Source: an uncultured virus (IMG/VR IMGVR_UViG_3300042257_000233) (lineage: Duplodnaviria; Heunggongvirae; Uroviricota; Caudoviricetes). Taken from it: DNA of 64,000 nucleotides. The stretch lies in the IMG/VR virus record IMGVR_UViG_3300042257_000233; one strand, 5' to 3'. Below, in pieces: positions 15,382-64,000 of this stretch. The notes under the pieces are model-generated. The model was given only the letters and a program-made list of their open reading frames with translations. It ran no database searches and had not been told where the DNA came from. Every line of letters starts with the position of its first letter. The first letter of the stretch is position 1. Both the position numbers and the translations under genes were made by a program.

Positions 15382-15382
15382 C

Positions 15383-47965: not shown

Positions 47966-47976
47966 GGAGGTGATCT

Positions 47977-48351: not shown

Positions 48352-48357
48352 CCCAGG

Positions 48358-48378
48358 GGCGGGGGCAATGCCCCCGCC
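48358..48378 (+). terminator. GC hairpin after the capsid genes
   Basis: GGCGGGGGC-AAT-GCCCCCGCC then TTGCTCTT. Confidence 0.6.
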
Positions 48379-48426
48379 TTGCTCTTGAATACAATGTATG
48401 ACGCAACAATCGTGACTGGAGGCTTC

Positions 48427-49773
48427 ATGATAAAAATGACGGTAGGTCTGCCGCTGTATAACAGCAAGAGAACCGCATGGTTAGCATTAACCAGCCTGTG
48501 CGCTCAACGCAATGTAAGTGAGCCATGGGAACTGATAGTGGCAGAAGAAGAAACGGAAGATATGGTAGGGGAGAAGACAATACGGTCGTATGAAAAGCGA
48601 CTGCGTGATGCCGGATGCATTAACATCGTTTATATCTCACTGAGCCAGTGGGTACCTCTGAGTAAGAAATGGCTATTGATGGCGCAGAAAGCAGCTAAGA
48701 GTAGCCGTCTGTTTTTATTGCAGGCATGTGACTGTTACAGTCAACCGTACCGGCTTGCCGATACGTGGACAACCTTTTGGGAAGGTCAGCCAGGATGCAT
48801 GTGGATTCAGGCTCCTACTGGGTTTTTTTACAATGTACGCAGCAACAAAGCTGCACTCTTTGATTGGGATAGCTACCCGGTGTATCACCCCTGCGGTCTG
48901 AATGTGGCGATTCCAACACAAATGCTGCTTCGCATCCCCATGGAAAGAGCAACCGTGAGACGTGGTGTAGATAGCTGGCTGTACAAACAGTGTCATTGCC
49001 CGGGAATACTCTGGATGAGTGACGAGCACGCGCATCTTGGCGTGGATGTGCATGGACTGAATAAATTGAGTGTAAGCCGTGGAGATCGCATTGACGCAGC
49101 AGAACCTCCATTTGTAGAGACAGACTGGAATCCGGAAGGTAACCTGCCAAAGAAGATTGCCAGCTGGCTGCGGGAAGTGGGTAAGACATTACCAGAGCGG
49201 TATGAGAGATTCCCCCTTATCACTATTGGTGTGATCTTCAGCCGTACTGATGAAGTGATGCAGCAACGGGTGATGGGAAGCATCCACAACTTATACTACA
49301 GCAATGTGGAATTTTTGAAAGTGGAAAACTATGATCGCAGCAAAACCATTGGCTATTGCCGCAACCAGATTGTGCAGCAGGCATCTGGCGAGTACGTTGC
49401 CTTTATCGATGATGATGACTGGGTGATGCCGGATTATCTGCATGCGCTTGCCGCAATCAGGGAACGGGCGCTGCGCGCTGGCGAAGATCCGGTGGGGGTG
49501 ATAAGCCACCTTACTCTGATAGATGAAACGCGGTACCAGCATGTGCAGGTGGCAAGCCCGGGCATGTGGAAGCGCCAATATCTGCTCAACCATCCGTTCA
49601 GTGAAACGCTGAAGAAGCACGTAACCGCCACCATGATGCAGGAGGCTGCAAAAGCCAAGCGCCACATTGCCTGCGCCCGTTGGTACTACGGCTACATGTA
49701 CTGTCAGCACAATGACAACGTAAGCGGCAACCACTGGGGAGACGAGAAAGATGGAATACAAACCAAAGCATAA
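48427..49773 (+). CDS. tandem GT-A (GT2-like) glycosyltransferase
   Basis: TVGLPLYN...WELIV; second domain RNQIVQQASGEYVAFIDDDD; ATG 48427 after GGAGG. Confidence 0.85.
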   Translation: MIKMTVGLPLYNSKRTAWLALTSLCAQRNVSEPWELIVAEEETEDMVGEKTIRSYEKRLRDAGCINIVYISLSQWVPLSKKWLLMAQKAAKSSRLFLLQACDCYSQPYRLADTWTTFWEGQPGCMWIQAPTGFFYNVRSNKAALFDWDSYPVYHPCGLNVAIPTQMLLRIPMERATVRRGVDSWLYKQCHCPGILWMSDEHAHLGVDVHGLNKLSVSRGDRIDAAEPPFVETDWNPEGNLPKKIASWLREVGKTLPERYERFPLITIGVIFSRTDEVMQQRVMGSIHNLYYSNVEFLKVENYDRSKTIGYCRNQIVQQASGEYVAFIDDDDWVMPDYLHALAAIRERALRAGEDPVGVISHLTLIDETRYQHVQVASPGMWKRQYLLNHPFSETLKKHVTATMMQEAAKAKRHIACARWYYGYMYCQHNDNVSGNHWGDEKDGIQTKA

Positions 49774-50251
49774 TCGGCCAGGCATGCCAACCCTGCGGGT
49801 GAAAGATCGTCTGCGCGACACCGGGCGATACGTGAACCGTTTTATAATGCCGGCAGAATACGAAAAGCTGCGCCCGGGGATGCCCGTGATGCGCTATGAT
49901 TTTAAGTTTAACCGGTACTGCTGTTTAACCGTAGAGCAGGATTTGGCCGAATATCTGAAGTTGAAATACCCGGACACGATCTACTTTGTGGATGAGCACA
50001 ACCAAGAGATGCGCGTACCTGATGAATTCACCGACATCCCGCACCGCCAGATGATGAAGGTAATGGGAGCCTACAACCGTGCGGCTAAAGAGATGGGGAT
50101 AACCGGTTACACTCTGGTAGGCAAGGCAGATGAGCTGCGTGACCGCTGCCGTGAGCTGAAAGAGAAGGGAGTGGAAATTGATCTGGTAGCCTTGGGAGTG
50201 AAAACAGTAGGAGAGGATGATGCCATCGAATCTGAGGAGAACGACCAATGA
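49751..50251 (+). CDS. hypothetical virion-module protein
   Basis: Syntenic with 9593-9946. Confidence 0.55.
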   Translation: MEYKPKHNRPGMPTLRVKDRLRDTGRYVNRFIMPAEYEKLRPGMPVMRYDFKFNRYCCLTVEQDLAEYLKLKYPDTIYFVDEHNQEMRVPDEFTDIPHRQMMKVMGAYNRAAKEMGITGYTLVGKADELRDRCRELKEKGVEIDLVALGVKTVGEDDAIESEENDQ

Positions 50252-50820
50252 CCTACGAAACATGCATCAACCAGATTCTTGAATTTGCTGGAGAAGGCTA
50301 TACCGGACAAAGCGCACTTGCCCGAACTGTGTTCAGACAGGTGATAGCAGAGAAGATGCTGGATGCTGCGGTGGGCGATGATGAGTTGCCGGGATTGATG
50401 CTGATAGATGCAAAAACCATGGCTGAAGGGGCTTCTACCATTGATCTGACAACCATTGATGGGTTTATGCAATTGATTGATCTTTTCCCTGGGCCAGAAG
50501 ATGAAGATGGATATATGTATCGTGAGCTCAGCAAGGCAGAACGCGACCGCATAGCCTACGATGATTCGTTTTTACCCGGCACAAATGAACTTGGCTGGTA
50601 TCGGGTAGGAAAGACCATTTATTTTGTACCCGCAGCCAATGCGTCTGGCCGCACCGTAAACATTAAATACAAGCGCACGCCGCTTGACTATGCATCTACA
50701 GTTACAGTTGGCAAGTGGGACGACACTACTGAGATGGACAATTACCTTACATACCCGATGCAGAGCTCGTGCATCCTGATGGCAGCAGATAGATTGAAAC
50801 AACTGGCAGAGAGGCGATAA
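50248..50820 (+). CDS. putative head-tail adaptor/ring protein
   Basis: WYRVGKTIYFVP...IKYKRTP pattern. Confidence 0.6.
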   Translation: MTYETCINQILEFAGEGYTGQSALARTVFRQVIAEKMLDAAVGDDELPGLMLIDAKTMAEGASTIDLTTIDGFMQLIDLFPGPEDEDGYMYRELSKAERDRIAYDDSFLPGTNELGWYRVGKTIYFVPAANASGRTVNIKYKRTPLDYASTVTVGKWDDTTEMDNYLTYPMQSSCILMAADRLKQLAERR

Positions 50821-51470
50821 TGAACATCAGTGACATAAAGACCCGATGCATGGATAAAATTGCCGACCTGCGAGACGGCAATGAAGTGGTGCGTGCACTT
50901 AATGCCACCATCGAGATTATTAACAGCAAGATACATGGCATCTACGACCGCCGGACGGTGGTTACCGATGGAGAGGCTGCCACGGGCTACACCTTGAGCA
51001 GTACCGTGCTTACCTTGAGCAGTGTGTTAAAAGAGCTGCAAGGTGTGTGGGTGAGCGGCTACGACAACCCATGGACTCCAATGCCCCGAACAGTGGTAGC
51101 TGCTAACGGAACCAGCACCACGTATGTAGACAACGGTAATGGTTCTATACTGTTTGCTGCGCTGCCTGATGATCCTACTATTTATGTGGAAGGGCTGTTT
51201 TGCATAGATGCAGTGAAATACACCGACACCACCCTGAGTGTGCCAGACAGCTGGAAGGCAGGCATCATGGCCGGTACGCTGGTAGACTTGCTGAGTGGGA
51301 GCCGCTACGAAAACGACAAACTTTTTGACCGAATGAACGCCATGTGGATGAGTTTTCTCGACGATATCTACATGTGGAGTGAGCGCCGCATCCCGCATTG
51401 GGAAGGCCAGGAATATAATTACCAAAACCCCACCGGGTGCATACCCAGTGAGCCAAGCGCCTTTCAGTAG
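50820..51470 (+). CDS. putative head-tail adaptor/ring protein
   Basis: Synteny; ISDIK...VVRALNAT...VPDSW..GI pattern. Confidence 0.55.
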   Translation: MNISDIKTRCMDKIADLRDGNEVVRALNATIEIINSKIHGIYDRRTVVTDGEAATGYTLSSTVLTLSSVLKELQGVWVSGYDNPWTPMPRTVVAANGTSTTYVDNGNGSILFAALPDDPTIYVEGLFCIDAVKYTDTTLSVPDSWKAGIMAGTLVDLLSGSRYENDKLFDRMNAMWMSFLDDIYMWSERRIPHWEGQEYNYQNPTGCIPSEPSAFQ

Positions 51471-51476
51471 GAACTT

Positions 51477-54400
51477 ATGGGAAAAACAATAGAGCTGCCA
51501 ATACCGGGAGTACTGAACAATGCCCAGCCGCCAGAGGAGCTGACTTTGCAGGAGATGCAGACCGCCACCAATTGTGAGATGCGCCGCCGTGGAAGATTGG
51601 ACGTGCGCAAGGGTGAAGTGGACAGCTACATCAACGACGGCTGGAAAGCACTGGTATCTGCCAGTGAAGTAAGCGGTGATATTGAGGATTGGTATATCTG
51701 GAACAGCCCACAGTTGCCAGAAGGCTGCTACGACGACGAAGTAATAGTGGTGTATAGCAGCGTGAAGCGGCTGTATGTGATATGGCGAACGGCAGCAGAA
51801 GTATGGACAGCCGAGAGTGTGAGCGTGAGCGGTGTTACCTTTGATGCTCCCACCTTTGAATTTCGCCCGGGACGGCAGGTGCTCTTAGTAACGGACAACC
51901 AAAACTATCCCTTCCGCATCTGGTTTGATGCAGACAAAGTGCTTCAAGCAGGGATGCTGCGCGTGCCTAACCCGGTGGAGCATGCCACCCTGAGCGCCTA
52001 TGGCAGCAGTTATGACAGTACGTGGTTTGAAGAAACCAGCAGTGACGACAAGCTGGGCGATTGTGCCATAGTACAGATGGCTTACACCGTGATAGATGAG
52101 TATGGAGCAGAGGGCAACCCCAGCCCCCGGAGTTTTAGCCTGAACATGCAGCTTTTTGCCAAAGATGCAGACACTGGCGAAGATGCTCGCTGGCTGGACA
52201 GAATAAAAGCCGACAACCTGAAGCTGCCGCCTGATCTGGATGAAGGTACCCTTGACCGGCAGAAATATTTTGGCATTTACCTGAGCATGGCCCGTAACAG
52301 TAACGGTACCGCTTATGCACCGCTGCTATACAGTGTGCGGGTGCCGATATATGCCAAGTATGATGAAAGCGGTGACCCGCTGCCAAACGAATATGTACTT
52401 ACTCAGATGCCCGACGGCAGCATTCAGGCAAGCTACGGCAACCTGGGCGCACCTATATCTGCCCATATCTGCGAGAATGCAGGGATTATTCAGCTGGGCG
52501 ATATCCGTACCCGGATGGAATTTTTGTGGGACAGTTTTAAATATTACCATCGTATAGAGATAAACAACCCGAATCTGGGGAACATGACGGATGCCAACAT
52601 TGTCTTGAAACTCGATCAATCCAGTATTAATAACTTAACAGTAGCAGACTTTGCTGTCAGCGATGGTGGTGGTGGCGGTGGCGGCCCCAGCATGGCAAAT
52701 ACCGGGCATATCCGCATCTTTGATGCCGACCGGATGACGCCACTTGCAGTGAACCTGCACCGCATTGATCTTGATGATGACTTTCTGCTGGTAGAAGTAC
52801 GCATACCGCAATTACTACCCAAGCAGCAGAACTACGTGTATCTGCTGTGGAACCCTGCCAGTGTAGCAGGAACCGGCACTTATACCGGCGCACCTGCGGC
52901 CTATAACACCTTTGAGTACGGCAAATTCTTTGCCGTGAACGTAGATACCTGGAGTGAGCAGCTGGTGGTGCCCACCGATAACCGGGTGCGTAATGACAAC
53001 CATGTGATATGCACCAGCGAAGAAGTGGCTCTGCAGGATGCCTTTGCCGATGCCGAAAGCGCAAGCATTACCGTGCCCAATGTGGCAGATACCAACAACT
53101 GCGGTGCCAGTGAAGAAGATTCATCGGCAAGCCATGCAGAGTTTGTGGGGCTGGGCTCTGGCAGTGCATTGATAAAGCTGTATGGCGAAGATCATAACAA
53201 TAACGCAATCGACTTCGGCGAAAAGACCAACTGGATAGAGTTAGACAATGTAGGGTTTGAAAATGGGCAGTTTACAGTCTTTGGTTTTTGCAAGATGGAT
53301 AGACTTGGCGTTGCTTTAAATACTTGGTATAGTCTGCTGTTTTCGTGTGGACAAAGTGGGGACACTTGGGACTTTTTTGGATTGCGCTCAAAAGCGGTAT
53401 CTTCTCTTACAACCATTGAATTCTATGACTCTAACGGTGGTGCACCTATCGTAGAGAACTACCGGCTTCTTCAGACAGATAATTATTTTTGCTATGTTAT
53501 TAGCGTAGATATGATTAACAACAAAGCCTTTGTTTTCATTGAAGAACTTTCGACTAAAACAATTTTGTATATAAAAGAGATAACCGCATTAGATTTCTCT
53601 GAAATTTCGGGTGTTGATAAAATCACTATAGGAGGAGAGTATTTTCTGGATGGGAGTACTACGAACTTTAGCCCTGACAACTATTATCATTCTCAATTCA
53701 ACGTAATAAAGGACATGTATGTAAACAATGCATCCAAGGTGCGAGCGCTGCGAATGTTTATGCCCTACTTTGAAACCGAGATGGTGGGCATAGAGTGGTG
53801 GGATGACACCAACCAGATAGCCAACGGAGATTTCAGCACGACGGACAACTGGGTTACGGGTACGGGGTGGAGCATTAACACGGTATCTGGTTTAGCCCGC
53901 TGTGATGGATCGCAGAGCACGGTGAGCGACCTCACCCATACATCCTTTGTATTACGCCACAACGAGATGACTAAGATACGGATAAAGCTGCAAAACGTAA
54001 CCGCGGGAGGTATTTTAGTGTGCAGCACGGCATCAGTGTCGGTTGGATATCATCCACGTTTTTTATCTTCGGACGGAACGTATGACATACCCATAGAAGA
54101 AAGTGGTGATACCTATTTCTTTATACGGGCAACCAGCAGCTTTGCCGGTGAGATAGACTTTGTGTATGGTTATCGGCCAAAGTACAATCAGAATGTCACC
54201 TTTGGCGAGACCAAGGAGATAGAGTGGAAGGATTACCCGCAGCGGGTAGTATGGACACAGCCCCGTGGCTTGAATGTGCCTGCTGCGTTTTACCGTGACT
54301 TCAAGGAGCGGGTAAATGGTTTGATCCCGGTGCGTGGCGGTAACGAAGAGCAGGACAGGGCCGTAACGGTAGTGCTTACCCGCAACCGTTTTTGCACTTT

Positions 54401-54689
54401 TATGCTTGAAGGCAGCGCGGATGCCTGGGCTGCAAGCCCCAGTGCCATAATAGAGGCGGGTGAGAACCAGGGCATCCTGCAGAAATACGCATGGTGCGAG
54501 ATGGACGGAATTTTGTATTGGATAAACGAGCAGGGCCTGATGCGCTGCCGTGACGGGCGCACTGTAGAGCGGCTGGCGGTGGGGCAGGATGGCTTTGACA
54601 CAATAGATTTAAGTATAACCAGTGGTGCCACTTACCGGCTGATACCATGCCCGGTGCGCCACCAGATATTAATAGTGCGTAATTCATAG
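51477..54689 (+). CDS. tail nozzle protein, N-terminal part, module B
   Basis: Homologous to the first ~1170 aa of 11206-15381 (YTVIDEYGAEGNPSP; LEGSADAW; GILYWINEQG). Confidence 0.75.
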   Translation: MGKTIELPIPGVLNNAQPPEELTLQEMQTATNCEMRRRGRLDVRKGEVDSYINDGWKALVSASEVSGDIEDWYIWNSPQLPEGCYDDEVIVVYSSVKRLYVIWRTAAEVWTAESVSVSGVTFDAPTFEFRPGRQVLLVTDNQNYPFRIWFDADKVLQAGMLRVPNPVEHATLSAYGSSYDSTWFEETSSDDKLGDCAIVQMAYTVIDEYGAEGNPSPRSFSLNMQLFAKDADTGEDARWLDRIKADNLKLPPDLDEGTLDRQKYFGIYLSMARNSNGTAYAPLLYSVRVPIYAKYDESGDPLPNEYVLTQMPDGSIQASYGNLGAPISAHICENAGIIQLGDIRTRMEFLWDSFKYYHRIEINNPNLGNMTDANIVLKLDQSSINNLTVADFAVSDGGGGGGGPSMANTGHIRIFDADRMTPLAVNLHRIDLDDDFLLVEVRIPQLLPKQQNYVYLLWNPASVAGTGTYTGAPAAYNTFEYGKFFAVNVDTWSEQLVVPTDNRVRNDNHVICTSEEVALQDAFADAESASITVPNVADTNNCGASEEDSSASHAEFVGLGSGSALIKLYGEDHNNNAIDFGEKTNWIELDNVGFENGQFTVFGFCKMDRLGVALNTWYSLLFSCGQSGDTWDFFGLRSKAVSSLTTIEFYDSNGGAPIVENYRLLQTDNYFCYVISVDMINNKAFVFIEELSTKTILYIKEITALDFSEISGVDKITIGGEYFLDGSTTNFSPDNYYHSQFNVIKDMYVNNASKVRALRMFMPYFETEMVGIEWWDDTNQIANGDFSTTDNWVTGTGWSINTVSGLARCDGSQSTVSDLTHTSFVLRHNEMTKIRIKLQNVTAGGILVCSTASVSVGYHPRFLSSDGTYDIPIEESGDTYFFIRATSSFAGEIDFVYGYRPKYNQNVTFGETKEIEWKDYPQRVVWTQPRGLNVPAAFYRDFKERVNGLIPVRGGNEEQDRAVTVVLTRNRFCTFMLEGSADAWAASPSAIIEAGENQGILQKYAWCEMDGILYWINEQGLMRCRDGRTVERLAVGQDGFDTIDLSITSGATYRLIPCPVRHQILIVRNS

Positions 54690-54694
54690 GAGGA

Positions 54695-55006
54695 ATGATG
54701 GAGAAGAAGACAGGGGCTTTGCCCCGGGTTGCTTTTGGCGATGTTTCCGACAGCTATGCTGACTTTGCGATAGTGCGGGAGACACTAACCGATGGAGAGA
54801 TCAAAGAAATTACGCCTCCCGATTTTGCGGCATGGGCGATAGTAGAGAGTAATGAAGATGTACGGGCGTATCGCCGGGTTACTGGTGAATACCGGCAGAG
54901 CATGGATCATTCTCTGCCTATGATCAACGTTAGTAGTTTTGGTTTACAGCGTACCGCCTCAGGTGAACAGACGGTAACTATAACCTATTACCTTTTTGCA
55001 GGTTAA
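54695..55006 (+). CDS. hypothetical protein
   Basis: GGAGG RBS; first gene of the inserted block. Confidence 0.6.
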   Translation: MMEKKTGALPRVAFGDVSDSYADFAIVRETLTDGEIKEITPPDFAAWAIVESNEDVRAYRRVTGEYRQSMDHSLPMINVSSFGLQRTASGEQTVTITYYLFAG

Positions 55007-55017
55007 GGGGGGAGTAC

Positions 55018-56430
55018 ATGGTTGGACCTATTGCAGTAAACTCTGCGCGATGGAAACGTAAAGATGGTGATTTGGTACCTCGAAAAGATGGAGAAGGAGT
55101 AAGGGTAGATGAGCTTAACGGAGCAGATATTAAAAACGCTCCTGCTGATCTTGCGCTGGCCGCAGATGGTTCTGGTGGGCTACGGTTCATTGACCTCAGC
55201 TACGCAAGCGACGCTTACGGCGTGTGCTATGATCTCGACACCGGTGAGTTTACCCGACTGGGCACACTTGCGGCTATCTCTGCCACGTACGATACAAGCT
55301 ACAAGCCGCTCAGCAATGTACCCGATTTGCTGTTGCCGATACAGCGCAACATGCGCCGGTGCCTGCTGAAAGATGACCGGACGGTAAACTACTATTGCAG
55401 CGCTACGGACACAACCAAAAAGGCAAACGGAGAAGCTGCTGTGCTTGATGGCACCGATGGGCAAGTGATGGTGGAAATTCCTGCGCACTGGTGGAAATTC
55501 GAGCGTATAGGCAACAAGCTGTACTGGTGGGTCGCTCCAACAGAAAAGACGGGTTATGGATGGAACTACTTTCCCAAAAATTATTATGGTACATACGAAG
55601 GGCAGTTGTATGACCATAGCGCTGGCAGTATTGTAGGCGGCCAAGGTGGAGCCGATACAGCCAACGACAAGCTCTGCTCGGTAAGCGGAGTAGAAGCGCA
55701 TACTGATGAGACAATCGTAGAATATCGTGACATAGCAACGAATCGTGGCACCGGTTGGTATCAGCAAGCAAATCACATTGACGCCGCAGTTGCACGACTC
55801 TATCTCATTGAGTATGCCAGCTTTGACACGCAAAGCAAAATATCGGAAGGTTTAACGAATGCGAGTAGTGGAGATTGGGGCGCATATAATGGCTATTGCC
55901 CGCTGCATGCCGCAGGCATTACTAACAGTTTAGGTAACACCTCCGGTGAAGTAGCGCTGAACATCGAAAATTTCGTCGATGGAACGGGGACGTTGAGCAC
56001 ACAGGCAATGAGTTATCGCGGAATAGAGAATTGGTATGGGCATCTTTGGAAGTGGCTGGACGGAGCGAACGTACACAACAGCCTTGCCAGTGGCAGCAGA
56101 TTGTATTTGTGTAGCGATCCTGCAAATTTCGCAAGCGACACCTCAACCAATTATGAGTTAGTCGGGACATTGCCGCAAACCGCGAACTATTACGACGTAT
56201 TACCTCTGGATAACGGGTTTTACCCATCAACAACAGTAAAAGGCTCTACCACAGGGTTGTGCGATTACTTTTACACGGCTTACCCGGCTGAGGGGTGGCG
56301 TGTCGTGGCTGTTGGTGGTGCCGCGTCTTACGGTGTGCTAGCGGGCGCTTTCTGCGTTCTTTCGCTTAGCGCTTCCTCGTATGACCATTCGTACTTTGGC
56401 GGTCGTCTCTGCGCGGCTGCTGGAGAGTAA
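55018..56430 (+). CDS. DGR target protein; putative receptor-binding fibre with C-terminal C-type-lectin-fold VR
   Basis: DGQVMVEIP, YRGIENWYGHLWKW, ends in GG.A..G..AG.F...GGRLC encoded by the VR. Confidence 0.9.
   Translation: MVGPIAVNSARWKRKDGDLVPRKDGEGVRVDELNGADIKNAPADLALAADGSGGLRFIDLSYASDAYGVCYDLDTGEFTRLGTLAAISATYDTSYKPLSNVPDLLLPIQRNMRRCLLKDDRTVNYYCSATDTTKKANGEAAVLDGTDGQVMVEIPAHWWKFERIGNKLYWWVAPTEKTGYGWNYFPKNYYGTYEGQLYDHSAGSIVGGQGGADTANDKLCSVSGVEAHTDETIVEYRDIATNRGTGWYQQANHIDAAVARLYLIEYASFDTQSKISEGLTNASSGDWGAYNGYCPLHAAGITNSLGNTSGEVALNIENFVDGTGTLSTQAMSYRGIENWYGHLWKWLDGANVHNSLASGSRLYLCSDPANFASDTSTNYELVGTLPQTANYYDVLPLDNGFYPSTTVKGSTTGLCDYFYTAYPAEGWRVVAVGGAASYGVLAGAFCVLSLSASSYDHSYFGGRLCAAAGE
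56300..56412 (+). repeat. DGR variable repeat (VR)
   Basis: 113-nt ungapped match to TR; 22 mismatches, all opposite TR adenines. Confidence 0.97.
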
Positions 56431-56456
56431 CAGTATGAGAACAAGCATCTCTGGTA

Positions 56457-56569
56457 GTGTCGTGGCTGTTGGTGGTAACGCGAATAACAGTGTGAAAGCA
56501 GGCGCTTTCTACGTTAATTCGAATAACGATTCCTCGAATGACAATTCGAACATTGGCAGTCGTCTCAGC
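56457..56569 (+). ncRNA. DGR template repeat (TR)
   Basis: AAC/AAT-rich copy of the VR between target and RT. Confidence 0.97.
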
Positions 56570-56680
56570 TTATCTAAACCTTATGCCAGAGTTGCTTTGC
56601 CTCTTGGCAGAACACAAAGCAATGCCTCATTACGTTTTGGTACCATTGAGAATGGGAAGAATCGGAGGTGAAATAAGCAG

Positions 56681-57736
56681 ATGAAACGATATAACAACTT
56701 ATATCAAAAAGTGTATGAAATGGAAAATCTGTTGATGGCCCATAAAAACGCTCGCAAAGGTAAGGCACACTACAAAGAGGTTAGGGAGATAGACCAGGAT
56801 ACTGAGAAGTCTTTGCTTAGCCTTCAGCAATTGCTTATGAACAAAACGTTTGAAAATTCGGCATACACGCACATAACACGCACTATGAAAAGCGGCAAGG
56901 TGCGTAAGATTGCCAAGTTGCCATACTACCCAGACCGAATAGTGCATCATGCGATCATACAAGTTGTTGGAGATATTTGGAAAAAAAGATTCATTAACAA
57001 CACGTATGCCTGCATAAAGGGGCGGGGTATCCATAAGTGTGTGAGGAAAATAAAGCAAGACTTGATAAACAGAGAAGCAACACGGTATTGTCTTAAAATG
57101 GATGTTAAGCAGTTCTATCCATCGGTTAATCATGACGTATTGAAGATGATTATTCGAAAGAAGATAAAAGACAAAGATTTGCTTTGGTTGTTAGATTTAA
57201 TCATTGATTCTGAAGAAGGGCTTCCTATCGGGAATTATTTAAGCCAATTCTTGGGGAATCTATATTTATCAGAGATTGATCATTACATTAAAGAGCAATT
57301 GCACTGTCATTACTATTACCGCTATTGTGACGACATGGTGATATTAAGCGATAACAAGCGTTGGCTACACGATATACGCATAATCTTGGAATCTCAGCTG
57401 AGTACTATACGTCTTGAATTAAAGTCTAACTGGCAGGTGTTCCCCGTTGCTTCCAGAGGCATAGATTTTCTTGGCTATCGTTTTTTCCACGGGTATACAT
57501 TGCTTCGTAAAACTATTGCTAATGGCATAAAAGAGAGCATGAAAGAAGTCAAGCAAAAGTGGGAAAGAATACCTGCTCAGACTGTTATATCGCGAGTCAT
57601 GAGCTATTATGGATGGATGCAATACAGCAATTGTCGTAACCTAAAAAACAAACATATTGATGATGAAATCTTCTGGATAGTGAAGCAGAAGGCGAAAGAG
57701 CTCGGCATTGCAAATCCCCTCCAGGGGGCAGCATGA
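56681..57736 (+). CDS. DGR reverse transcriptase
   Basis: DRIVHHA, KGRG.H, LKMDV.QFY.S, GLPIGNYLSQ, YYRYCDD, GIDFLGY. Confidence 0.97.
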   Translation: MKRYNNLYQKVYEMENLLMAHKNARKGKAHYKEVREIDQDTEKSLLSLQQLLMNKTFENSAYTHITRTMKSGKVRKIAKLPYYPDRIVHHAIIQVVGDIWKKRFINNTYACIKGRGIHKCVRKIKQDLINREATRYCLKMDVKQFYPSVNHDVLKMIIRKKIKDKDLLWLLDLIIDSEEGLPIGNYLSQFLGNLYLSEIDHYIKEQLHCHYYYRYCDDMVILSDNKRWLHDIRIILESQLSTIRLELKSNWQVFPVASRGIDFLGYRFFHGYTLLRKTIANGIKESMKEVKQKWERIPAQTVISRVMSYYGWMQYSNCRNLKNKHIDDEIFWIVKQKAKELGIANPLQGAA

Positions 57737-58023
57737 AAAAGTTTAGTGACTTTGCCAAAGAGAAAGTGCTTGATGGAGAGAAGATGCGTATTGACGACGT
57801 GCTGAACGAAGACATAAAAGTGGTTAACTTCACGATTAAAACGTCAAAATATCCAAAGAATAACAGCGGCAAGTATCTTACTTTGCAAATAGAGCGAAAT
57901 AGCCGGAAATATGTTGTTTTTACCGGTTCTGATGTTTTGATAGAACAAATGGAAAAGTATGGAGATGAGGTTCCATTTGAGGCGACAATCAGAAAAATCA
58001 ATCGATACTACAGTTTAACTTAG
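57733..58023 (+). CDS. small beta-rich protein coupled to the RT (candidate non-Avd accessory)
   Basis: ATGA overlap with the RT stop; alternating hydrophobic strands, VVFTGS motif. Confidence 0.7.
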   Translation: MKKFSDFAKEKVLDGEKMRIDDVLNEDIKVVNFTIKTSKYPKNNSGKYLTLQIERNSRKYVVFTGSDVLIEQMEKYGDEVPFEATIRKINRYYSLT

Positions 58024-58032
58024 GAGGATAGG

Positions 58033-58368
58033 ATGAGGATGAGCGAAAGCAAGCTACGGCAGCCTGATGTGATACCGCAAGGGCAGGCCAAGCTAATTAA
58101 CTTCAATCATGAGCAGGTTACCCGAACAGGTGAGGATGGACTGACTGAAGCCTTTTGGAGATGTGAGCAGGTGCGGGTTCATGCCTACGCATCTCGCGGT
58201 GCGATAATTTCAGCCATAATCCGTAACAAATATGATGAGCCGGGGCAGGAAGCTGCACTTATTAACAATGCTATTGCAAACCCAGAAGAGGCTACAGCAC
58301 AGGCAGAATACGCAGAATACCAGCAGCGCCGGCAGATGGCAAAAGCCGTAGCAGATAGCATCCAGTAA
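58033..58368 (+). CDS. putative fibre-associated/chaperone protein
   Basis: IISAIIRNKY...EYAEYQ..R..AK pattern, recalled next to phage fibre genes. Confidence 0.5.
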   Translation: MRMSESKLRQPDVIPQGQAKLINFNHEQVTRTGEDGLTEAFWRCEQVRVHAYASRGAIISAIIRNKYDEPGQEAALINNAIANPEEATAQAEYAEYQQRRQMAKAVADSIQ

Positions 58369-58377
58369 AGGACGAAC

Positions 58378-58761
58378 ATGAGTGAAGCAGACGTTAGAAT
58401 CGCAAAACTCGAACAGAGACAGGAGAGCTGCGAGTCTCGATTGTCCGCTGTAGAAGACACACAGAAACAGATCACGGAGATCAGAGACCTTCTGCTGGTT
58501 ATACAGTCTGATTTGCAACATGAGATCAAGGACTTCGATGATAAGCGTCTGCGCTGCATGAAGGAATTCGACGCACGCTACGTGCAGCATTCGCAACTGA
58601 ACAGCTGTGTGCAGAAGCAGATCGATAGTGACCGCGAGAAGCGGAGTGAAACCACCAGCCGCAGCACGCTGATATTTGGCAGAGTTTTGGATATCGCCTT
58701 TAAGCTCTGCGTGGTACTGGCGGCAGGATACGCAGTGTACAGCGCTGCGATGGGAGGATAG
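58378..58761 (+). CDS. coiled-coil protein with C-terminal TM helix (lysis-cassette type)
   Basis: RIAKLEQR...hydrophobic C-terminus. Confidence 0.55.
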   Translation: MSEADVRIAKLEQRQESCESRLSAVEDTQKQITEIRDLLLVIQSDLQHEIKDFDDKRLRCMKEFDARYVQHSQLNSCVQKQIDSDREKRSETTSRSTLIFGRVLDIAFKLCVVLAAGYAVYSAAMGG

Positions 58762-58762
58762 G

Positions 58763-59206
58763 GTGATAAAAGAGATAATCGGCGCAGTGGCAGGAGCAAT
58801 AAAACCAGCTACAGACTTGGTGGATAATCTCACCACCACCACCGAAGAAAAAATGCAACTGCGCAATGCGCTGGAACAATTACAGAACCAAGTAACCACC
58901 AAGCTGATAGACTATGATACCGAAGTGGCAAAGGCAAAAGCTGAGATCATGAAAGCAGAATTGCAGCAGGATGACAAATTTACCAAGCGAGCACGTCCAT
59001 GGATTATTTATGGCGGATTGATTGCGCTGGGGCTTAACCACATCATGCTACCATGGGCGGCATGGATAATGACAGCGGTAGGCGCAACCACCGAAGCATT
59101 ACCAGCAATTAACCTGCCAGGTGAATTTTGGCTTGCATGGGGTGGGGCGGCTGGTGTTTACGCTTTTCGCCGGACTTCTGAGAAGCTAACCAAGGCAAAG
59201 GGGTAG
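58763..59206 (+). CDS. holin, 3TM (GTA-holin-like)
   Basis: GTG start after GGAGG; T.EEK...DKFTKRARP + TM...G.Y...RT.EK. Confidence 0.8.
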   Translation: MIKEIIGAVAGAIKPATDLVDNLTTTTEEKMQLRNALEQLQNQVTTKLIDYDTEVAKAKAEIMKAELQQDDKFTKRARPWIIYGGLIALGLNHIMLPWAAWIMTAVGATTEALPAINLPGEFWLAWGGAAGVYAFRRTSEKLTKAKG

Positions 59207-59209
59207 GAT

Positions 59210-59431
59210 ATGGATAAGCTCTATCATTTCTGCGGCTGTGCCGTAGTGGCCTTTGGTGCCGGGGTGCTGTGGAAGAACCCGGCGGCAGGCTACGGTGTGG
59301 CGGTAACGGCAGGCATCCTGAAGGAAGAAGCAGACGATCGGCCCGGCGGCAGCGGCTACGACAAACTGGATATCCGGGCTGATGTAATGGGCGCGCTGGT
59401 AGGGAGCTGCGCTGCAATGCTGGTGTTGTGA
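59210..59431 (+). CDS. small membrane protein (DK..HF...KE..D...D..AD family)
   Basis: MDKLYHF...GILKEEADD...DIRADVMG. Confidence 0.65.
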   Translation: MDKLYHFCGCAVVAFGAGVLWKNPAAGYGVAVTAGILKEEADDRPGGSGYDKLDIRADVMGALVGSCAAMLVL

Positions 59432-59874
59432 TGGCGCAGGAAGTTTTTGTTTTTGATGCCCGTCGTAACGCGGTGACGGGAAAATTCGGCAACATGGATA
59501 TTGTGCGGGGGCAGCCGCTTACCGGGGGTAAATGGTTGAAGAACGTGGTTGTGTTCCAAAACACTGACGGTGATCTGAAAGAGTACCCATCCAGCAGCAA
59601 CACATCAGAGACGGCGACCGTGCGCACAGCACGGTATGCATTAGATGAAGCGGGAGAAGAGCGGATAGGCAAGATAAAAGTGGTGTATGAAGGCACTGCT
59701 ACAGTGATGGTGTACAGTTACAACCACCGTTACGAGACTACCCCGTACCGGGTGATTACCTGCACCGGAATAAGCAGTGACACATGGTTTGTGTTACCGC
59801 TGAACGTGAAATCTTCGTTTATAGAGATACAAGTGAGTGGGTTTACCACTTTGAAGGCAATTTTCATACAGTAG
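59428..59874 (+). CDS. tail nozzle protein, C-terminal part, module B
   Basis: Aligns with the last ~145 aa of 11206-15381. Confidence 0.7.
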   Translation: MMAQEVFVFDARRNAVTGKFGNMDIVRGQPLTGGKWLKNVVVFQNTDGDLKEYPSSSNTSETATVRTARYALDEAGEERIGKIKVVYEGTATVMVYSYNHRYETTPYRVITCTGISSDTWFVLPLNVKSSFIEIQVSGFTTLKAIFIQ

Positions 59875-59883
59875 GAGGCAGGG

Positions 59884-61467
59884 ATGGCATGGTATTCTGC
59901 ACCGTTAGTGCTAGGAGCGATTGACAGCGCGAGACATTATTTTAACAAGCCCAAGCAGCAGCAGCCGGACACGGGCTGGATGCAGAGATTTATAAACAAT
60001 TGGAAGGGTGAAGTGAGTTCTAACACCACCCAGAATCGCATTATGCGGGATGCGCAGCGCACCATAGGCGCGAATGCCACCAGAGCGAACCAGCAGATAG
60101 GGTATGATTTGGCACGTACCGGAAATGAAGGATTAGCCGCCAGTGCAATACTGCAAACGCAGAAGAACAGCAACGCAGCGGGGCAAAACGCATTGCAGTA
60201 TGCCAGCAGGCAGCAGGAGCAGGACAACACCCGCTACCAGAATAAAATAGAGAATCTGGAGATGATGCGGGAGCGGATAGAGGCAGAGGCGCGGCAGCGG
60301 CACAACGTGGCAATGGATGAATGGAAGCAGGGCTGGGGCGATGTGGCCATGAATACCGCTGGTCGATTGGCAACCGCCGGGATGAACGAGATGGCACGCA
60401 ATGCAGCAGAGCTGAAACAGCAGGGCACCAGGGAAGAGAGCGCAGGCATCCTGAACAAACTGATGGACGGGAGCCTGAACGATGCTGACCTGCAGGAAGC
60501 AGTACGCAGCGGCGCAATGACGGTGAACGAAGCATGGCGCTACGCACAGACCATGGACAGCCAGGGTGATGACCAAGCCTATTTTGATGCAGTGAAAAAG
60601 CTGGCAGGTGGCACGCACGAATGGAACCCTGAATTTGATACCGGGCAGAACATGAAGCTGCTGCAACTGAGTATACCGGATGAAACCAACTCTGGAGAAG
60701 CGTATTACAACGAGCTGGCAGGGATATTGAAAAGTGACCGGGCATTTGATCCGAAGATGACGACACAGCAGAACGTGAATATACTGCGTAGCAGCCAGAC
60801 GGCAGACACCGGGGAAGAGCAGAACAAAGTGTATTATGGCATGAGTACCAACCCAGACCTTACCCCGGAGCAGGTAGATGCAGCGGTAAATGCCGGAGCA
60901 ATAACGCCACAGATGGGTTTGAACCTGCAAAAACGCTTTGCCACGGAAGATATTGAGACCGACTGGTACAAAGGCGAAGATGGGCTGGAGCACCAGCAGG
61001 CAAACATTAATGGACAATGGGTGGACACTGGCATCACACGCAAGGCAAACTACAATGCCAGCGCAGACAAACGACAGCAAAAAGCACAGCAGGATTTGGT
61101 TACCTTTGGCAATGAACTGGAGGTATACTCGAAGTTTACTAATAATGCCGCAGCTGAGGATATGCGAGACCTGGTAAGTAACATTACCACCATCCCGCTG
61201 GATGAGGCGCAGGACAGGCTGTATAATTATGTTAACGGAATGGACTTGCCTATCAAAGGTGGAAATAGCATTGAATACCCTGGACCAAAAGGGGAAAAGA
61301 TAAAAATAACTTTGGCCGGTGACAGCGACGAGGCGAAGTTATTTGATGCACGGATGAAGATTTACACCCGGCTCACTAAAGCGTTGAACAACATACGGCT
61401 GAATATGGGCGAGCAGACGACGCCTGATAATTTTAATGATGACTTTAATCAGTTTGATTGGGACTAA
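59884..61467 (+). CDS. putative ejection protein, module B
   Basis: Q/N/A-rich helical protein before the giant gene. Confidence 0.6.
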   Translation: MAWYSAPLVLGAIDSARHYFNKPKQQQPDTGWMQRFINNWKGEVSSNTTQNRIMRDAQRTIGANATRANQQIGYDLARTGNEGLAASAILQTQKNSNAAGQNALQYASRQQEQDNTRYQNKIENLEMMRERIEAEARQRHNVAMDEWKQGWGDVAMNTAGRLATAGMNEMARNAAELKQQGTREESAGILNKLMDGSLNDADLQEAVRSGAMTVNEAWRYAQTMDSQGDDQAYFDAVKKLAGGTHEWNPEFDTGQNMKLLQLSIPDETNSGEAYYNELAGILKSDRAFDPKMTTQQNVNILRSSQTADTGEEQNKVYYGMSTNPDLTPEQVDAAVNAGAITPQMGLNLQKRFATEDIETDWYKGEDGLEHQQANINGQWVDTGITRKANYNASADKRQQKAQQDLVTFGNELEVYSKFTNNAAAEDMRDLVSNITTIPLDEAQDRLYNYVNGMDLPIKGGNSIEYPGPKGEKIKITLAGDSDEAKLFDARMKIYTRLTKALNNIRLNMGEQTTPDNFNDDFNQFDWD

Positions 61468-61470
61468 GCA

Positions 61471-64000
61471 ATGGCACAATATAACAGAGACCAATACCTC
61501 TTTGCACAGAAGATGACAAGTAAGTACAGCGTGCCTGCATACCGGGCAATGCTGCAACCAGAGCAGCGAGATAAGCTGCAAAAGATGCAGAACTACTTGA
61601 ATACCTATCAGCAGAATTTTGAGGCTGAGGAGCGGCAAATGGCGTTTAATACGCTGCCGCTGGACGAACGAACGGGGCAGGGATTACCACAACCACGCAG
61701 GGAGCGCATTGAATCTTTCTCTCAGATGCCGCTTGATGAGAGAACAGGGGAGACTTTGCCTGAGCGTCCACTGGAGAAAAAACCGGGGGTATTTCAGCAG
61801 ATGGTTGATGTGTTCAGGAAGAAACCGGAGCCGGCAGCAGGGCCTACCGTAGACCTGGCAGACCCACAGTCAGAAGAAGATGAACAGCTACAGGACTATA
61901 TAGCACAGAGGGAATACGCTGTGCATCGTATATCTCCGGCAAAAGCATATGAGATGATGCAGCTGAAGCCGATGTACAACCCTAATGATTACTTGAAAAT
62001 GCTTGATCTTGAAGAAGAAAAATATTACCAGAAGAAATACCAACAGATGGATGATACTGCGCGTAATGCTTTTGCTGAAGAATGGGGAATACCAGCAGAG
62101 AAAGTGTTCAGCGAATATGCACCGATAAAAGGGCCGGTTTCTGTTCCTGAAGATTACACTGGACGCGCGGGATTTGAGCCGGTGATGGATGCTGCCACAC
62201 CGACGCTCAGAGCTGAAGCGGAAGAACGCAAGCAAAGGATCGCCGACACAACCATTATGCTTGATGCATTAGCTGCACCATTTGCCGAATTGCCGGTAAA
62301 GAAGATTGAAGGGTTAGTTGATGTAACTAATGCAGCGCTTAGTAAGATTACAGGCATCAACGTACCGGATGACAGAGGTGGCGCACTGGCTGAAGTGCGT
62401 AAAGTGCTGGATGAAGTAGGCGGAGCAGCAGCGGAAAAATACACAACCGCTGCCAAGGTTGGTGGCGCCGGAGCTGGTTTAGCAGAATTTATCGTTGATC
62501 TGGCTGTACTGAAGGGAGCGACCGGGATAACGAGCACCCCTGTTCTTTTTGCCATGAACTCAATGGTAAACAATGCGCCTGAAGTGGTTACTGGGCAGAT
62601 AAGCAGAGAGGACTATCTGAAGTCAATTGGAGTGAGTGGGTTAACCGGTTTAATGTTTAATGCGACAACCGCCGCAGCACGGAGCATTGGGGCAGAGAAG
62701 GCAATAGCTGGCAAATTGGTAAAATGGATGCCGGAAAGCATGAGCGTGGGCGAAGCCGCAGCGTTGTCCGGCAAACTTGGTCGAGTATTAGGAGCCCCCA
62801 TCCCAGCAGCAGGGGCAGCGGCAGCAGGAGCAGGCAGCCAAGTGATGCAGAACGTGCTTAACCACGAAGACGATATACTGAAGGGAGTGCCAGAGAGTGC
62901 AACCCAATTAGCGCTCTACAGTTTTATTACCTCAGTAGCGCCCATGGTGGTGGGGCCAAACCGCATACGTGGTGCAGAGCTGAAGACCGGGATGAAAGCT
63001 GCACAGAAGATGTTCGATGAGACGCTGTTCAGGCAGCAGGTAATTGACCACAAAGTTCCTGACCACGTGATATTGAGTGCGCGACAGCTACGCGATATAT
63101 GGCAGACCGGCAAGCTGACAACTGCAGAAGAAAAGAGCCTGGTGCAAGAGCTGATGGGTAAAAACGATGCCACGATAAAAGATTTGATACGCAGCAAGCA
63201 TGGGCTTGATATCGAGATAGGGGCAGGCAAGATTGTGCGGCTGGTGGATAAACCATATTGGAGCAAGATCAAAGGCATTTTCCGGCTTGATCCGTACATG
63301 AAGACGGTGAAGCGTACAACCGGCGAGATGAAAGCGTACCGCACCAGCTATGGCAAGCGGCTGGGTGAGCAGCTGAATGAGGCTGAGCAGGCGATATTGG
63401 CTGGAGATACAGCAGCAGCGCAGCGCACCATGGGGCTGATAGATGCGAACCGCAAAACCATATTGAAGAATGCAGAAGGTGATGCGCCGGTGATAAAGAA
63501 GCGCATTGCTGCCATAGAAACACAATTGGCAGGAGGAGCCGTTGAAACGCAGGAACCGCTGGAAGTGCCCGCACAACCCACCAAAACAGAAATACGCGAA
63601 CAAGCCGAAGACACTACAAAGCCAAAGGTAAAGAGCAGGAAGCCGAAAGCAAAAAGTAAGAAGCCAAAGGCAGAGCGCAAGAAGCAGAAGACCTATGTAC
63701 GTACCAGCAAGGGAGTATTTGAAGTAGAGCGAGAAACTGATAAAAGCTGGATACTTACCAATGGTACCATTGCGCGCAAAAGTGCCAAAGGCAACAGCAT
63801 ATCTACCGAGATGGCATATAAGCGAAGTCTTGCCCGGCGCAAAGCACCCAGTAAACGCAAAGTAACCGACGAGGTGAACCTGCGCACCAGCAATATCACG
63901 CCAGAGCGCACACCATTTCTTGACCATTTTAAAAGCACCGGGATGCAAACCAGTGATGTTGATTTGAAGAACTACCGCATCGGGATAAAGCCATTATTCA
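61471..64000 (+). CDS. second giant ejection/polyvalent protein (truncated at window end; absent from the ORF track)
   Basis: ATG 61471 MAQYNRDQ...; no stops in the stretches I translated; in frame with the shared KPKAE.KKQKTYVRTSKG segment. Confidence 0.85.
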   Translation, partial: MAQYNRDQYLFAQKMTSKYSVPAYRAMLQPEQRDKLQKMQNYLNTYQQNFEAEERQMAFNTLPLDERTGQGLPQPRRERIESFSQMPLDERTGETLPERPLEKKPGVFQQMVDVFRKKPEPAAGPTVDLADPQSEEDEQLQDYIAQREYAVHRISPAKAYEMMQLKPMYNPNDYLKMLDLEEEKYYQKKYQQMDDTARNAFAEEWGIPAEKVFSEYAPIKGPVSVPEDYTGRAGFEPVMDAATPTLRAEAEERKQRIADTTIMLDALAAPFAELPVKKIEGLVDVTNAALSKITGINVPDDRGGALAEVRKVLDEVGGAAAEKYTTAAKVGGAGAGLAEFIVDLAVLKGATGITSTPVLFAMNSMVNNAPEVVTGQISREDYLKSIGVSGLTGLMFNATTAAARSIGAEKAIAGKLVKWMPESMSVGEAAALSGKLGRVLGAPIPAAGAAAAGAGSQVMQNVLNHEDDILKGVPESATQLALYSFITSVAPMVVGPNRIRGAELKTGMKAAQKMFDETLFRQQVIDHKVPDHVILSARQLRDIWQTGKLTTAEEKSLVQELMGKNDATIKDLIRSKHGLDIEIGAGKIVRLVDKPYWSKIKGIFRLDPYMKTVKRTTGEMKAYRTSYGKRLGEQLNEAEQAILAGDTAAAQRTMGLIDANRKTILKNAEGDAPVIKKRIAAIETQLAGGAVETQEPLEVPAQPTKTEIREQAEDTTKPKVKSRKPKAKSKKPKAERKKQKTYVRTSKGVFEVERETDKSWILTNGTIARKSAKGNSISTEMAYKRSLARRKAPSKRKVTDEVNLRTSNITPERTPFLDHFKSTGMQTSDVDLKNYRIGIKPLF
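63650..64000 (+). repeat. direct repeat copy 2
   Basis: Matches 19081-19431 and runs off the window end. Confidence 0.97.

Follow-up and report, generated by a model that had tools for sequence, protein, structure and literature searches.

An Avd-less diversity-generating retroelement of a wastewater tailed phage and a candidate OB-fold accessory gene beside its reverse transcriptase

How can a diversity-generating retroelement (DGR) work without the accessory protein Avd? The question is raised by a compact cassette in a 64,000-nt stretch of DNA from an uncultured tailed phage, referred to as the window, in which a target gene, a template repeat (TR) and the gene for a reverse transcriptase (RT) follow each other closely (Table 1). 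With high confidence, we read it as the complete DGR of a ~45-kb wastewater tailed phage, lacking Avd, arranged in the order target-TR-RT, and operating by the mechanism proposed below. By itself, such an element is one among tens of thousands of phage DGRs, and the compact Avd-less layout is not new, since it was classified already in 2018 (Wu et al. 2018). What our analysis adds to earlier knowledge is an OB-fold gene tied to DGR RTs and a covarying duplex around the TR. The product of this gene, a protein of 96 aa, is called p96 for short.

Table 1. Positions of the genes, repeats and RNA elements of the cassette in the window.
Feature	Position	Strand	Remarks
Target gene, 470-aa variable protein, last of the tail module	55018..56430	+	phrog_5302 'tail protein', E 1.7e-92
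Variable repeat (VR)	56300..56412	+	codes for the target's last ~38 variable residues
Predicted TR-bracketing duplex, 5' strand	56443..56456	+	abuts the first TR base
Template repeat (TR)	56457..56569	+	29 adenines; same sequence in the window and in phage record L001
Predicted TR-bracketing duplex, 3' strand	56584..56597	+	just 5' of the first RT-17 hairpin
Structured TR-RT spacer RNA, Rfam RT-17-like	56593..56684	+	runs into the RT start codon; RF03020
DGR reverse transcriptase, 351 aa	56681..57736	+	Pfam RVT_1 E 1.3e-17; phrog_1423 E 5.6e-115
p96, OB-fold protein, candidate DGR accessory factor	57733..58023	+	start overlaps the RT stop by 4 nt (ATGA)

The identification as a DGR, already made in the earlier note, is upheld by an adenine-specific repeat pair, by an RT closest to that of the solved entry 8ub7, and by a target with a C-type-lectin (CLec) fold. 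A repeat search returns a single direct pair, 113 nt long, ungapped and 81% identical. Compared base by base, 22 of the 29 TR adenines are changed in the VR (to T nine times, to C seven times, to G six times), while the 84 non-adenine positions are all unchanged. The chance that all 22 mismatches land on 29 adenines among 113 positions is 1.1e-17. In the target frame, 27 of the 29 adenines fall on codon position 1 or 2 and the TR holds nine AAY codons; counted on the translations, 16 codons differ between TR and VR. The VR stays in frame, the reading frame being open up to the stop codon at 56428-56430. Further VRs, for which the earlier note had suggested a search, did not turn up: the TR has no second VR-like match on either strand of the window or in a complete 45,291-bp record of a related phage (G002/L001). 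As the note had also observed, the VR is not followed by a hairpin, structure at this place being no better than in shuffled sequences (z -0.1 to -0.6); among 54 related loci, only three form a structure of at most -9 kcal/mol within 60 nt around the VR end (5 nt before to 55 nt after). Neither was a shared 3' segment resembling an IMH found, as the homology of TR and VR stops 2 nt beyond the last variable A.

The VR lies at the 3' end of an in-frame gene whose product, over its C-terminal two thirds, is modelled by AlphaFold as a C-type-lectin (FGE-like) fold (pLDDT 84.1). Its best structural match is TaqVP, the variable protein of the Thermus aquaticus DGR (5vf4; Foldseek E 5.7e-8; Z 24.1, 260 aligned residues, rmsd 2.9, 20% identity), followed at a distance by the DGR variable proteins TvpA (Z 13.6) and Mtd (Z 12.9). 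TaqVP, however, is a cellular protein, whereas the target belongs to a phage tail module and carries ~110 additional N-terminal residues, which are poorly modelled. The RT contains the motifs PIGNYLSQ (57224-57247) and YCDD (57323-57334), as the earlier note had reported. A motif 4 of the form [ILV]GxxxSQ together with YxDD marks the DGR clade of RTs, and S188, Q189, D217 and D218 are invariant across 28 relatives of the window RT. Among solved structures, the RT of entry 8ub7 (328 aa) is nearest to it (E 1.1e-38, residues 2-320); we take this RT to be bRT of Bordetella phage BPP-1.

The cassette forms the end of the tail module of a 45-kb phage that occupies positions 40749-64000 of the window, in agreement with the earlier assignment of the DGR to "module B" of this stretch. 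There is indeed no room for avd in its usual slot, as the TR begins 26 nt past the target stop. Throughout the complete phage record, a search for Avd (a PF05635-like helical barrel) gave zero matches at E<=1, and the small ORFs neighbouring the cassette have no Pfam match. An ORF of 96 aa at 56381..56671 (+), tried as avd or another gene, was rejected: it results from reading the TR in the frame of the target; when translated, it gives the VR peptide once more, with the varied residues replaced by N, and it has no Pfam match. Likewise, the gene at 58033-58368 (111 aa, phrog_11557) was dismissed as a part of the DGR, its family being present in 11 loci that have neither RT nor p96. On the other side of the target, the gene at 54695-55006 (103 aa), also set aside as a candidate, has no match in Pfam, PHROG or NCBIfam, and a scan of 54500-59500 for promoters and terminators yielded nothing above chance. 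Avd is not a defining feature of DGRs, 26% of which lack it (Wu et al. 2018). The cassette is nevertheless probably not accessory-free, because the OB-fold gene is coupled to the RT.

Around the TR, and between it and the RT, whose start lies 111 nt past the TR, we predict two RNA elements. Two segments that bracket the TR may form a duplex of 13 bp with one U.U (-22.7 kcal/mol, z -3.1). Because the 5' strand of the duplex cannot be aligned by sequence, RNAalifold returned only 3 trivial pairs for a MAFFT alignment of the TR region; duplex energies of strands from the same locus were compared with those of strands from different loci in its place. Own-locus pairs average -18.2 kcal/mol and cross-locus pairs -13.3 kcal/mol, and none of 10000 permutations reaches the own-pair mean. 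In five loci (L002, L003, L020, L046 and L078), the strands are very different in sequence and yet complementary. As far as sequence comparison can tell, the predicted duplex covaries. The spacer that follows matches RF03020 over the full model (1-95; E 1.9e-4 over 4 kb), with 36.3 bits where a gathering score of 40.4 is set. In 11 of 16 related loci, a match in the corresponding position passes this threshold (41.3-64.8 bits); judged by this context, the window spacer is a divergent RT-17 member. The entire RNA from TR to spacer folds no better than shuffled sequences (z -0.66).

From these parts we propose the following mechanism. A late transcript would carry the TR, clamped by the bracketing duplex, with the RT-17-type structured spacer next to it. 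The RT would copy the TR into cDNA, misincorporating opposite adenines, and by analogy with BPP-1 cDNA synthesis may be primed in cis from the spacer. The VR would then be replaced by the cDNA, such that up to 29 nucleotide positions are re-drawn at the ligand-binding face of a tail protein with C-type-lectin fold. The target would be a receptor-binding protein, and its fold and position suggest that diversification plays a role in tropism.

Evidence on activity comes from natural genomes. The complete record G002/L001 has direct terminal repeats and a CheckV completeness of 100%. Its VR differs from that of the window at 17 positions, each of which faces a TR adenine; the two TRs are identical. 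Across 51093-64000, there is no difference outside the VR (the other 12.8 kb), while 144 sites differ across 40766-51092; the two phages are close relatives, not clones. As all 17 differences are templated by TR adenines and the TR is unchanged, the element has acted after the two genomes split. The description of the element as recently active is hence borne out, by alleles of contigs rather than by reads. The second VR allele, that of G002/L001, recurs in contigs of four further wastewater runs (X3-X6); three of these contigs (X3-X5; 44,219, 30,550 and 44,120 nt) differ from the window in 54700-58100 only within 56320-56395. In total, the six data sets, all compared as contigs, hold only two VR alleles. 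That the element is still active at present is likely.

The p96 gene belongs to phrog_19665 (E 2.7e-5). Other members score better against this family, namely the forms encoded between target and TR, here called avd-slot forms (E 1e-31) and that of locus L061 (E 1e-8), and one HMM built from both forms of p96 finds 62 ORFs in 62 loci. It is the avd-slot form that the PAG1 sequences supplied with Wu et al. 2018 match; that paper lists PAG1 with weak support and terms PAG genes 'tenuous'. Pfam, NCBIfam and PADLOC hold no family for p96. Its structural model (pLDDT 91.9) consists, from residue 27 onward, of three strands, a helix and two strands. At Z>=5 it matches 14 chains, nearly all of them OB-fold SSB, PriB or editosome proteins, the best with Z 7.2 (rmsd 2.6, 68 aligned) and Z 6.3 (rmsd 2.2, 68 aligned), values below 8 that may mean just a common arrangement. 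Foldseek with the p96 model gave nothing at E<=1e-3, and a search of solved structures by sequence with the p96 profile found no relative. A prediction of the complex of RT and p96, run without controls, scored 0.00 and is evidence for neither side.

Compared with known systems, the window DGR appears to fit the Avd-less class "Lineage 3 / CLec3 / TG-TR-RT" (Wu et al. 2018), going by gene order, lack of avd, and likeness of target and VR seen by eye. Lineage 3 DGRs (architecture A1, VR class CLec3, target '(ext)CLec3') are arranged target-TR-RT without avd, as in the window. Their targets in the supplement have conserved motifs in common with the window target when compared by eye, and their VR ends in the same ...G.RLC motif. 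Examples with a PAG1 are those of Alistipes shahii, A. putredinis and Bacteroides coprocola. These PAG1 proteins fall into the same PHROG family as p96, and that of A. shahii reads identically to an ORF of one of our loci (L057). They are, however, encoded between target and TR, whereas the p96 gene of the window follows the RT and overlaps its stop, and the window protein is only 18-20% identical to their branch.

A closer match to p96 is found in the DGR of the archaeal virus ANMV-1 (Paul et al. 2015; KP703175.1), which has the same order of target (adtA), TR soon after the stop, and RT. Here, an ORF of ~98 aa begins 2 nt past the RT and is 48% identical to p96 (E 4e-17), although the RTs are only 32% identical, the targets are unlike in sequence (E 1.3), and the host of ANMV-1 is archaeal. 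A figure legend of Paul et al. 2015 names an 'Avd' ORF; in the record, the p96 homologue is a hypothetical protein. With BPP-1 (mtd-avd-TR-brt), the window shares an adenine-specific TR-to-VR transfer that alters a tail protein in its C-terminal CLec domain. A structured spacer between TR and RT, and a duplex between a TR-upstream segment and the spacer, are described for BPP-1 as well, and the predicted TR-bracketing duplex resembles its avd:Sp 'cPRT Stop' duplex. Unlike BPP-1, the window has no Avd, no IMH/IMH* pair and no GC hairpin past the VR; its spacer matches Rfam RT-17 and not RT-10, and it encodes a small OB-fold protein where BPP-1 has a pentameric helical barrel.

The closeness of the p96 gene to the RT might mean little, if RT and RNA alone suffice (Architecture A of Wu et al.) and p96 is an unrelated neighbour, e.g., a small SSB or a late-operon passenger. 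We regard this as unlikely, though a serious alternative. It accords with the placement of such cassettes in A1 (TG-TR-RT) by Wu et al. 2018, with the doubts on PAG genes and the missing database name cited above, and with the distribution of p96 in the 80 loci ascertained by the target: 32 have both RT and p96, 13 the RT only, 2 p96 only and 33 neither. Because 13 of these 45 RT-bearing loci lack a homologue, p96 is not universally required; nine of the 13 form one well-supported RT clade. Yet p96 tracks the RT and not the phage. In 31 loci ascertained by p96 itself, a DGR-type RT adjoins it in 28, of which 12 have no homologue of the window target, and the family is found beside DGR RTs of phages as well as of archaeal viruses (ANMV-1; a Methanosarcinales virus). 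Its position shifts: in 54 distinct loci, it overlaps or abuts the RT stop in 25, lies one gene beyond in 10, occupies the avd slot in 18 and is fused to the RT in one. Altogether, six RT-OB fusion proteins were found, mutually 42-52% identical. Moreover, p96 is missing in 11 loci without an RT, in which both the target and the phage gene that comes next are retained.

Two further readings concern the cassette as a whole. It could be a recently silenced relic, in which the VR differences record past retrohoming; the restriction to two alleles, the lack of both hairpin and IMH-like element past the VR, and two relatives (L012 and L008) that retain TR and VR without an RT would suit such a history. 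Against it, RT, TR, spacer and p96 are all intact, the TR is the same in both alleles, and no mismatch has accumulated at the 84 non-adenine positions, whereas L008, after loss of its RT, shows non-adenine positions in 5 of its 33 mismatches between TR and VR. In addition, signs of recent activity occur in 50-75% of DGRs, most in viral ones (Roux et al. 2021). We hold a relic to be improbable, and a currently functioning element to be the better reading. Alternatively, the 3' end of the gene could have undergone an ordinary tandem duplication, beside an RT of group II intron, retron or defence-system origin; this reading would draw on the sub-threshold matches of the RT to such families. These lie far under the NCBIfam cut-offs for all group II, retron and Drt models (group II 116.5 vs 300 bits; retron St85 63 vs 235; Drt3a 64 vs 200), and this reading is refuted by the adenine pattern of the mismatches, by the RT scores, by the relationship to 8ub7 and by the relatives, as an A-biased pair is seen in 55 of 81 sources (80 related loci and the window). 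We give it practically no weight.

For the DGR so established, the question of the cofactor takes a concrete form. The RT of the BPP-1 model depends on Avd for activity, and on lineages that lack Avd, Wu et al. 2018 go no further than to state that they must employ "a distinct variation" of the mechanism. With p96, a concrete candidate for this variation is at hand, which is coupled to the RT, located in the avd slot or fused to the RT, and which comes with a defined RNA, the predicted TR clamp duplex and the RT-17 spacer. We lean towards the view that p96, whose translation is coupled to that of the RT, serves the RT as nucleic-acid-binding cofactor in place of Avd. The chances are about even for the broader proposal that the p96 family is the true cofactor of a whole branch of DGR RTs, from bacterial phages to viruses of methane-cycling archaea, and substitutes for the Avd barrel by holding the RT-17 spacer RNA or the nascent cDNA. 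If this is true, p96 would be the mechanism of 'Avd-independent' mutagenic retrohoming, and the RT-OB fusions its single-chain form. DGR-based tools for targeted mutagenesis now depend on bRT-Avd; a two-gene or single-chain module of RT and cofactor with ~450 residues may be of use for the same purpose.

A repeat search within 52000-60000 returned a single direct repeat pair, 113 nt long, ungapped and 81% identical, of which the downstream copy is the template repeat (TR) and the upstream copy the variable repeat (VR) at the 3' end of the target gene. Base-by-base comparison reproduced what an earlier note had read from this pair: 22 of the 29 TR adenines are changed in the VR, none of the 84 non-adenine positions is mismatched, and the VR keeps its reading frame with no stop within. 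Of the 22 changes, nine are to T, seven to C and six to G. Random placement of 22 mismatches over the 113 positions would put all of them on the 29 adenines with P = 1.1e-17. Adenines occupy codon position 1 or 2 in 27 of 29 cases; by manual count on the translations, AAY codons number nine in the TR, and TR and VR disagree at 16 codons. The distance of 26 nt from the target stop to the TR and both motifs of the reverse transcriptase (RT) were likewise confirmed, as was the absence of a hairpin after the VR, where the DNA does not fold better than shuffles (z -0.1 to -0.6). In a scan for further VRs, the TR had no other match in the window or in the related complete phage record L001, and the VR count is one.

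Features of the diversity-generating retroelement (DGR) and its surroundings in the window
Feature	Coordinates	Remarks
Target gene	55018-56430 (+)	470-aa variable protein
VR	56300-56412	3' end of target gene
5' duplex strand	56443-56456	14 nt directly 5' of TR
TR	56457-56569	29 adenines
3' duplex strand	56584-56597	immediately precedes first RT-17 hairpin
TR-RT spacer	56593-56684	Rfam RT-17 match over full model
RT ORF	56681-57736	motifs PIGNYLSQ, YCDD
p96 gene	57733-58023 (+)	ATG overlaps RT stop codon; phrog_19665, E 2.7e-5
phrog_11557 gene	58033-58368	111 aa

The target protein search found 246 relatives in viral contigs, from which 80 loci were retained. Among these, L001 lies on a record of 45,291 bp with direct terminal repeats and a CheckV completeness of 100%. 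Over 9,411 aligned bases, window and L001 share an identical TR and show one difference outside the VR (51092) and 17 inside it, all 17 facing TR adenines. The TR/VR mismatches of L001 itself fall on A in 20 of 20 cases and on non-A in none, and the two VR alleles differ in 10 residues (manual count). Along the whole common arm (window 40749-64000, record 403-23651), a gapped alignment contains 160 differences, of which 16 are located in the VR (17 ungapped) and the remaining 144 all within 40766-51092; from 51093 to 64000 window and record are identical except for the VR. Because of these 144 non-VR differences, the two genomes are closely related but not clonal. The contrast still holds between the 113 nt of VR, with 17 changes, and the other 12.8 kb of 51093-64000, with none. 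The 144 sites lie in head and early tail genes, densest in 48310-50722, and their pattern, with no non-VR difference in 51093-64000, suggests recombination between close relatives. The runs containing the stretch are wastewater metagenomes, in which it occurs as contigs. Contigs of 44,219, 30,550 and 44,120 nt (runs X3-X5) and a short contig of run X6 carry the L001 allele, and within 54700-58100 they differ from the window only in 56320-56395, so that contig-level data contain two VR alleles in all. The recent activity proposed in the earlier note is thus borne out by 17 VR changes facing TR adenines against none elsewhere in 51093-64000: the element is a genuine DGR that acted recently.

The RT matches Pfam RVT_1 and phrog_1423 (E 5.6e-115), while the NCBIfam models for group II introns, retrons and Drt all score far under their cut-offs. 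Among solved structures, it is closest to entry 8ub7, a 328-aa reverse transcriptase (E 1.1e-38, residues 2-320) that is probably the Bordetella phage bRT. The target protein has no Pfam family and belongs to phrog_5302, 'tail protein' (E 1.7e-92). Its AlphaFold model (pLDDT 84.1) matches three DGR variable proteins, namely Thermus TaqVP (Foldseek E 5.7e-8; Z 24.1 over 260 residues, rmsd 2.9), Treponema TvpA (Z 13.6) and Bordetella Mtd (Z 12.9). The gene closes a head-tail module that includes a terminase at 42241, a portal at 43863 and a 1070-aa protein at 51477-54689; from fold and gene position, we infer a receptor-binding role. In 59 of the 111 loci searched (L001-L111), a member of the phrog_11557 family comes after the homologue of the target gene. 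In contrast to p96, the 96-aa protein encoded behind the RT, the phrog_11557 gene is rejected as a DGR part and is a conserved phage gene, because family members are present in 11 loci lacking both RT and p96.

The window as a whole is a mosaic relative to the L001 record. Window 40749-64000 corresponds to record 403-23651 and window 19076-40665 to record 23296-44233 (82-100% identity), with joins near 19076 and at 40665-40749; the record lacks window 1-19000, which is a second terminase-portal-head-tail module. Since both arms match in this way, the window crosses the terminal repeat of the record. It looks like two related phages in tandem with a common right arm, or an assembly path through that arm. 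In the first phage copy, a 2675-aa ORF (16866-24893) runs collinear with the DNA past the open-ended ORF 61471-63999 at the end of the window: the record extends beyond 23651 (window 64000), and its part 23296-24429 aligns to window 19076-20209 at 94%. Neither ORF has a PHROG match. About 778 nt of the window (36438-37214) are represented by 5 nt in the record and contain ORF 36454-37215 (253 aa), again with no PHROG match. Two short integrase-like ORFs near the record end, 38146-38901 (+) and 39204-39839 (-), match phrog_216 (E 4e-38 and 1e-34), and the phage may be temperate.

Of 81 sources examined, the 80 loci and the window, 55 have an A-biased TR/VR pair. In 36 of the 55 the layout is as compact as in the window (TR 23-153 nt past the stop), and in 16 the distance is 412-549 nt; for three the stop estimate is unreliable. 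In the long-form loci, the ORF in 'avd position' does not encode the accessory protein Avd but a member of phrog_19665 (E about 1e-31), the PHROG to which the 96-aa ORF of the window also belongs. The earlier note's statement that the gap between target stop and TR leaves no room for avd holds, and PF05635, the Avd family, has no match at E<=1 in the complete phage record. Two loci (L012 5017-5589, L008 5101-5666) lack an RT within the locus but still have the target, VR and TR as well as a p96 homologue; in L008, 5 of 33 TR/VR mismatches are at non-adenines. Both cassettes look like decaying or remotely served ones.

The spacer between TR and RT scores 36.3 bits with RT-17 (E 1.9e-4), under the gathering score of 40.4; RT-17 is above threshold at the same place in 11 of 16 related loci. 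Weinberg et al. 2017 describe RT-1 to RT-19 as motifs discovered close to RT genes, place RT-10 between the BPP-1 TR and RT, and guess that others serve DGRs. The two strands bracketing the TR pair with 13 bp and one U.U, and relatives carry different but complementary strands at these sites. Own-locus duplexes have a mean energy of -18.2 kcal/mol versus -13.3 +/- 3.8 with partners from other loci, and the own-locus mean was attained in none of 10,000 permutations; the own partner strand ranks first of 48 in nine loci and among the top five in 25. This supports, short of proof as the loci are related and not independent, a duplex conserved by pairing. A similar duplex in BPP-1, the avd:Sp 'cPRT Stop', ends cDNA synthesis at the TR 5' end. 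BPP-1 differs from the window DGR in having neither an RT-17-type spacer nor an RT-coupled gene for a probable OB-fold protein.

p96 has no family in Pfam, NCBIfam or PADLOC, and none of its 199 close homologues bears a name other than 'hypothetical'; its profile gathers 1,232 cluster representatives at E<=1e-3. The p96 model (pLDDT 91.9) shows, from residue 27, three strands, a helix and two strands. Foldseek returned nothing at E<=1e-3 with it; an independent structure search gave 14 chains at Z>=5, almost all of them OB-fold single-strand binders, led by the RuvBL2 OB domain (Z 7.2), Bartonella SSB (6.3) and Plasmodium SSB (6.2), with PriB and editosome OB proteins at lower Z. We read the model as an OB fold, the Z values below 8 being only middling; as modelled, p96 is not an Avd-type helical barrel. 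Its pI is 9.07 (family mean 8.1 +/- 1.1).

The 80 loci ascertained by target contain RT and p96 in 32 cases, RT only in 13, p96 only in two (one at a contig end) and neither in 33. Conversely, a DGR-type RT adjoins p96 in 28 of 31 loci ascertained by p96, the other three being partial matches, and 12 of these 28 lack a homologue of the window target. Of 54 distinct loci carrying RT and p96, 25 have p96 overlapping or abutting the RT stop, 10 have it one gene beyond the RT and 18 between target and TR; the remaining one has an in-frame fusion of p96 to the RT (L054, 409 aa). Five more fusions (P0124, P0161, P0251, P0259, P0183) combine an N-terminal RVT_1 or phrog_1423 part with a C-terminal p96, P0183 scoring slightly under the Pfam cut-off for RVT_1; the six are 42-52% identical to each other. 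In a quick RT tree, 'downstream' forms of p96 occur in both halves, 'avd-slot' forms fall into two nested groups, and nine of 13 p96-less RTs form one clade (SH-aLRT 100%). These nine (L023, L024, L032, L034, L035, L041, L044, L048, L060) have a compact target-TR-RT layout with no room for Avd and no p96 homologue.

Wu et al. 2018 find avd in 74% of DGRs, define architecture A as free of accessory genes, state that 'Lineage 3 notably lacks avd' and list four 'potential accessory genes' whose significance they call 'tenuous'. One of these, PAG1, is present in three DGRs (Alistipes putredinis, Bacteroides coprocola, Alistipes shahii; Lineage 3, A1, CLec3). The PAG1 sequences printed there show the avd-slot form of the p96 family, and that of A. 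shahii reads like the L057 ORF. Our literature search on PAG1 and on OB-fold or single-stranded DNA-binding accessory proteins with DGRs found no treatment after Wu et al. 2018; neither 'accessory' nor 'Avd' occurs in the main text of Roux et al. 2021. Among named phages, a Methanosarcinales virus carries a p96 homologue, as does ANMV-1, the archaeal virus of the first archaeal DGR description (Paul et al. 2015), where a figure legend names an 'Avd' ORF. Both viruses have the homologue directly 3' of the RT and the TR close behind the target stop; between ANMV-1 and the window, identity is 48% for p96 and 32% for the RT, with unrelated targets. The window DGR belongs to the known Avd-less TG-TR-RT class, and from synteny, position swaps and RT fusions we lean towards p96 serving as a cofactor of the RT.
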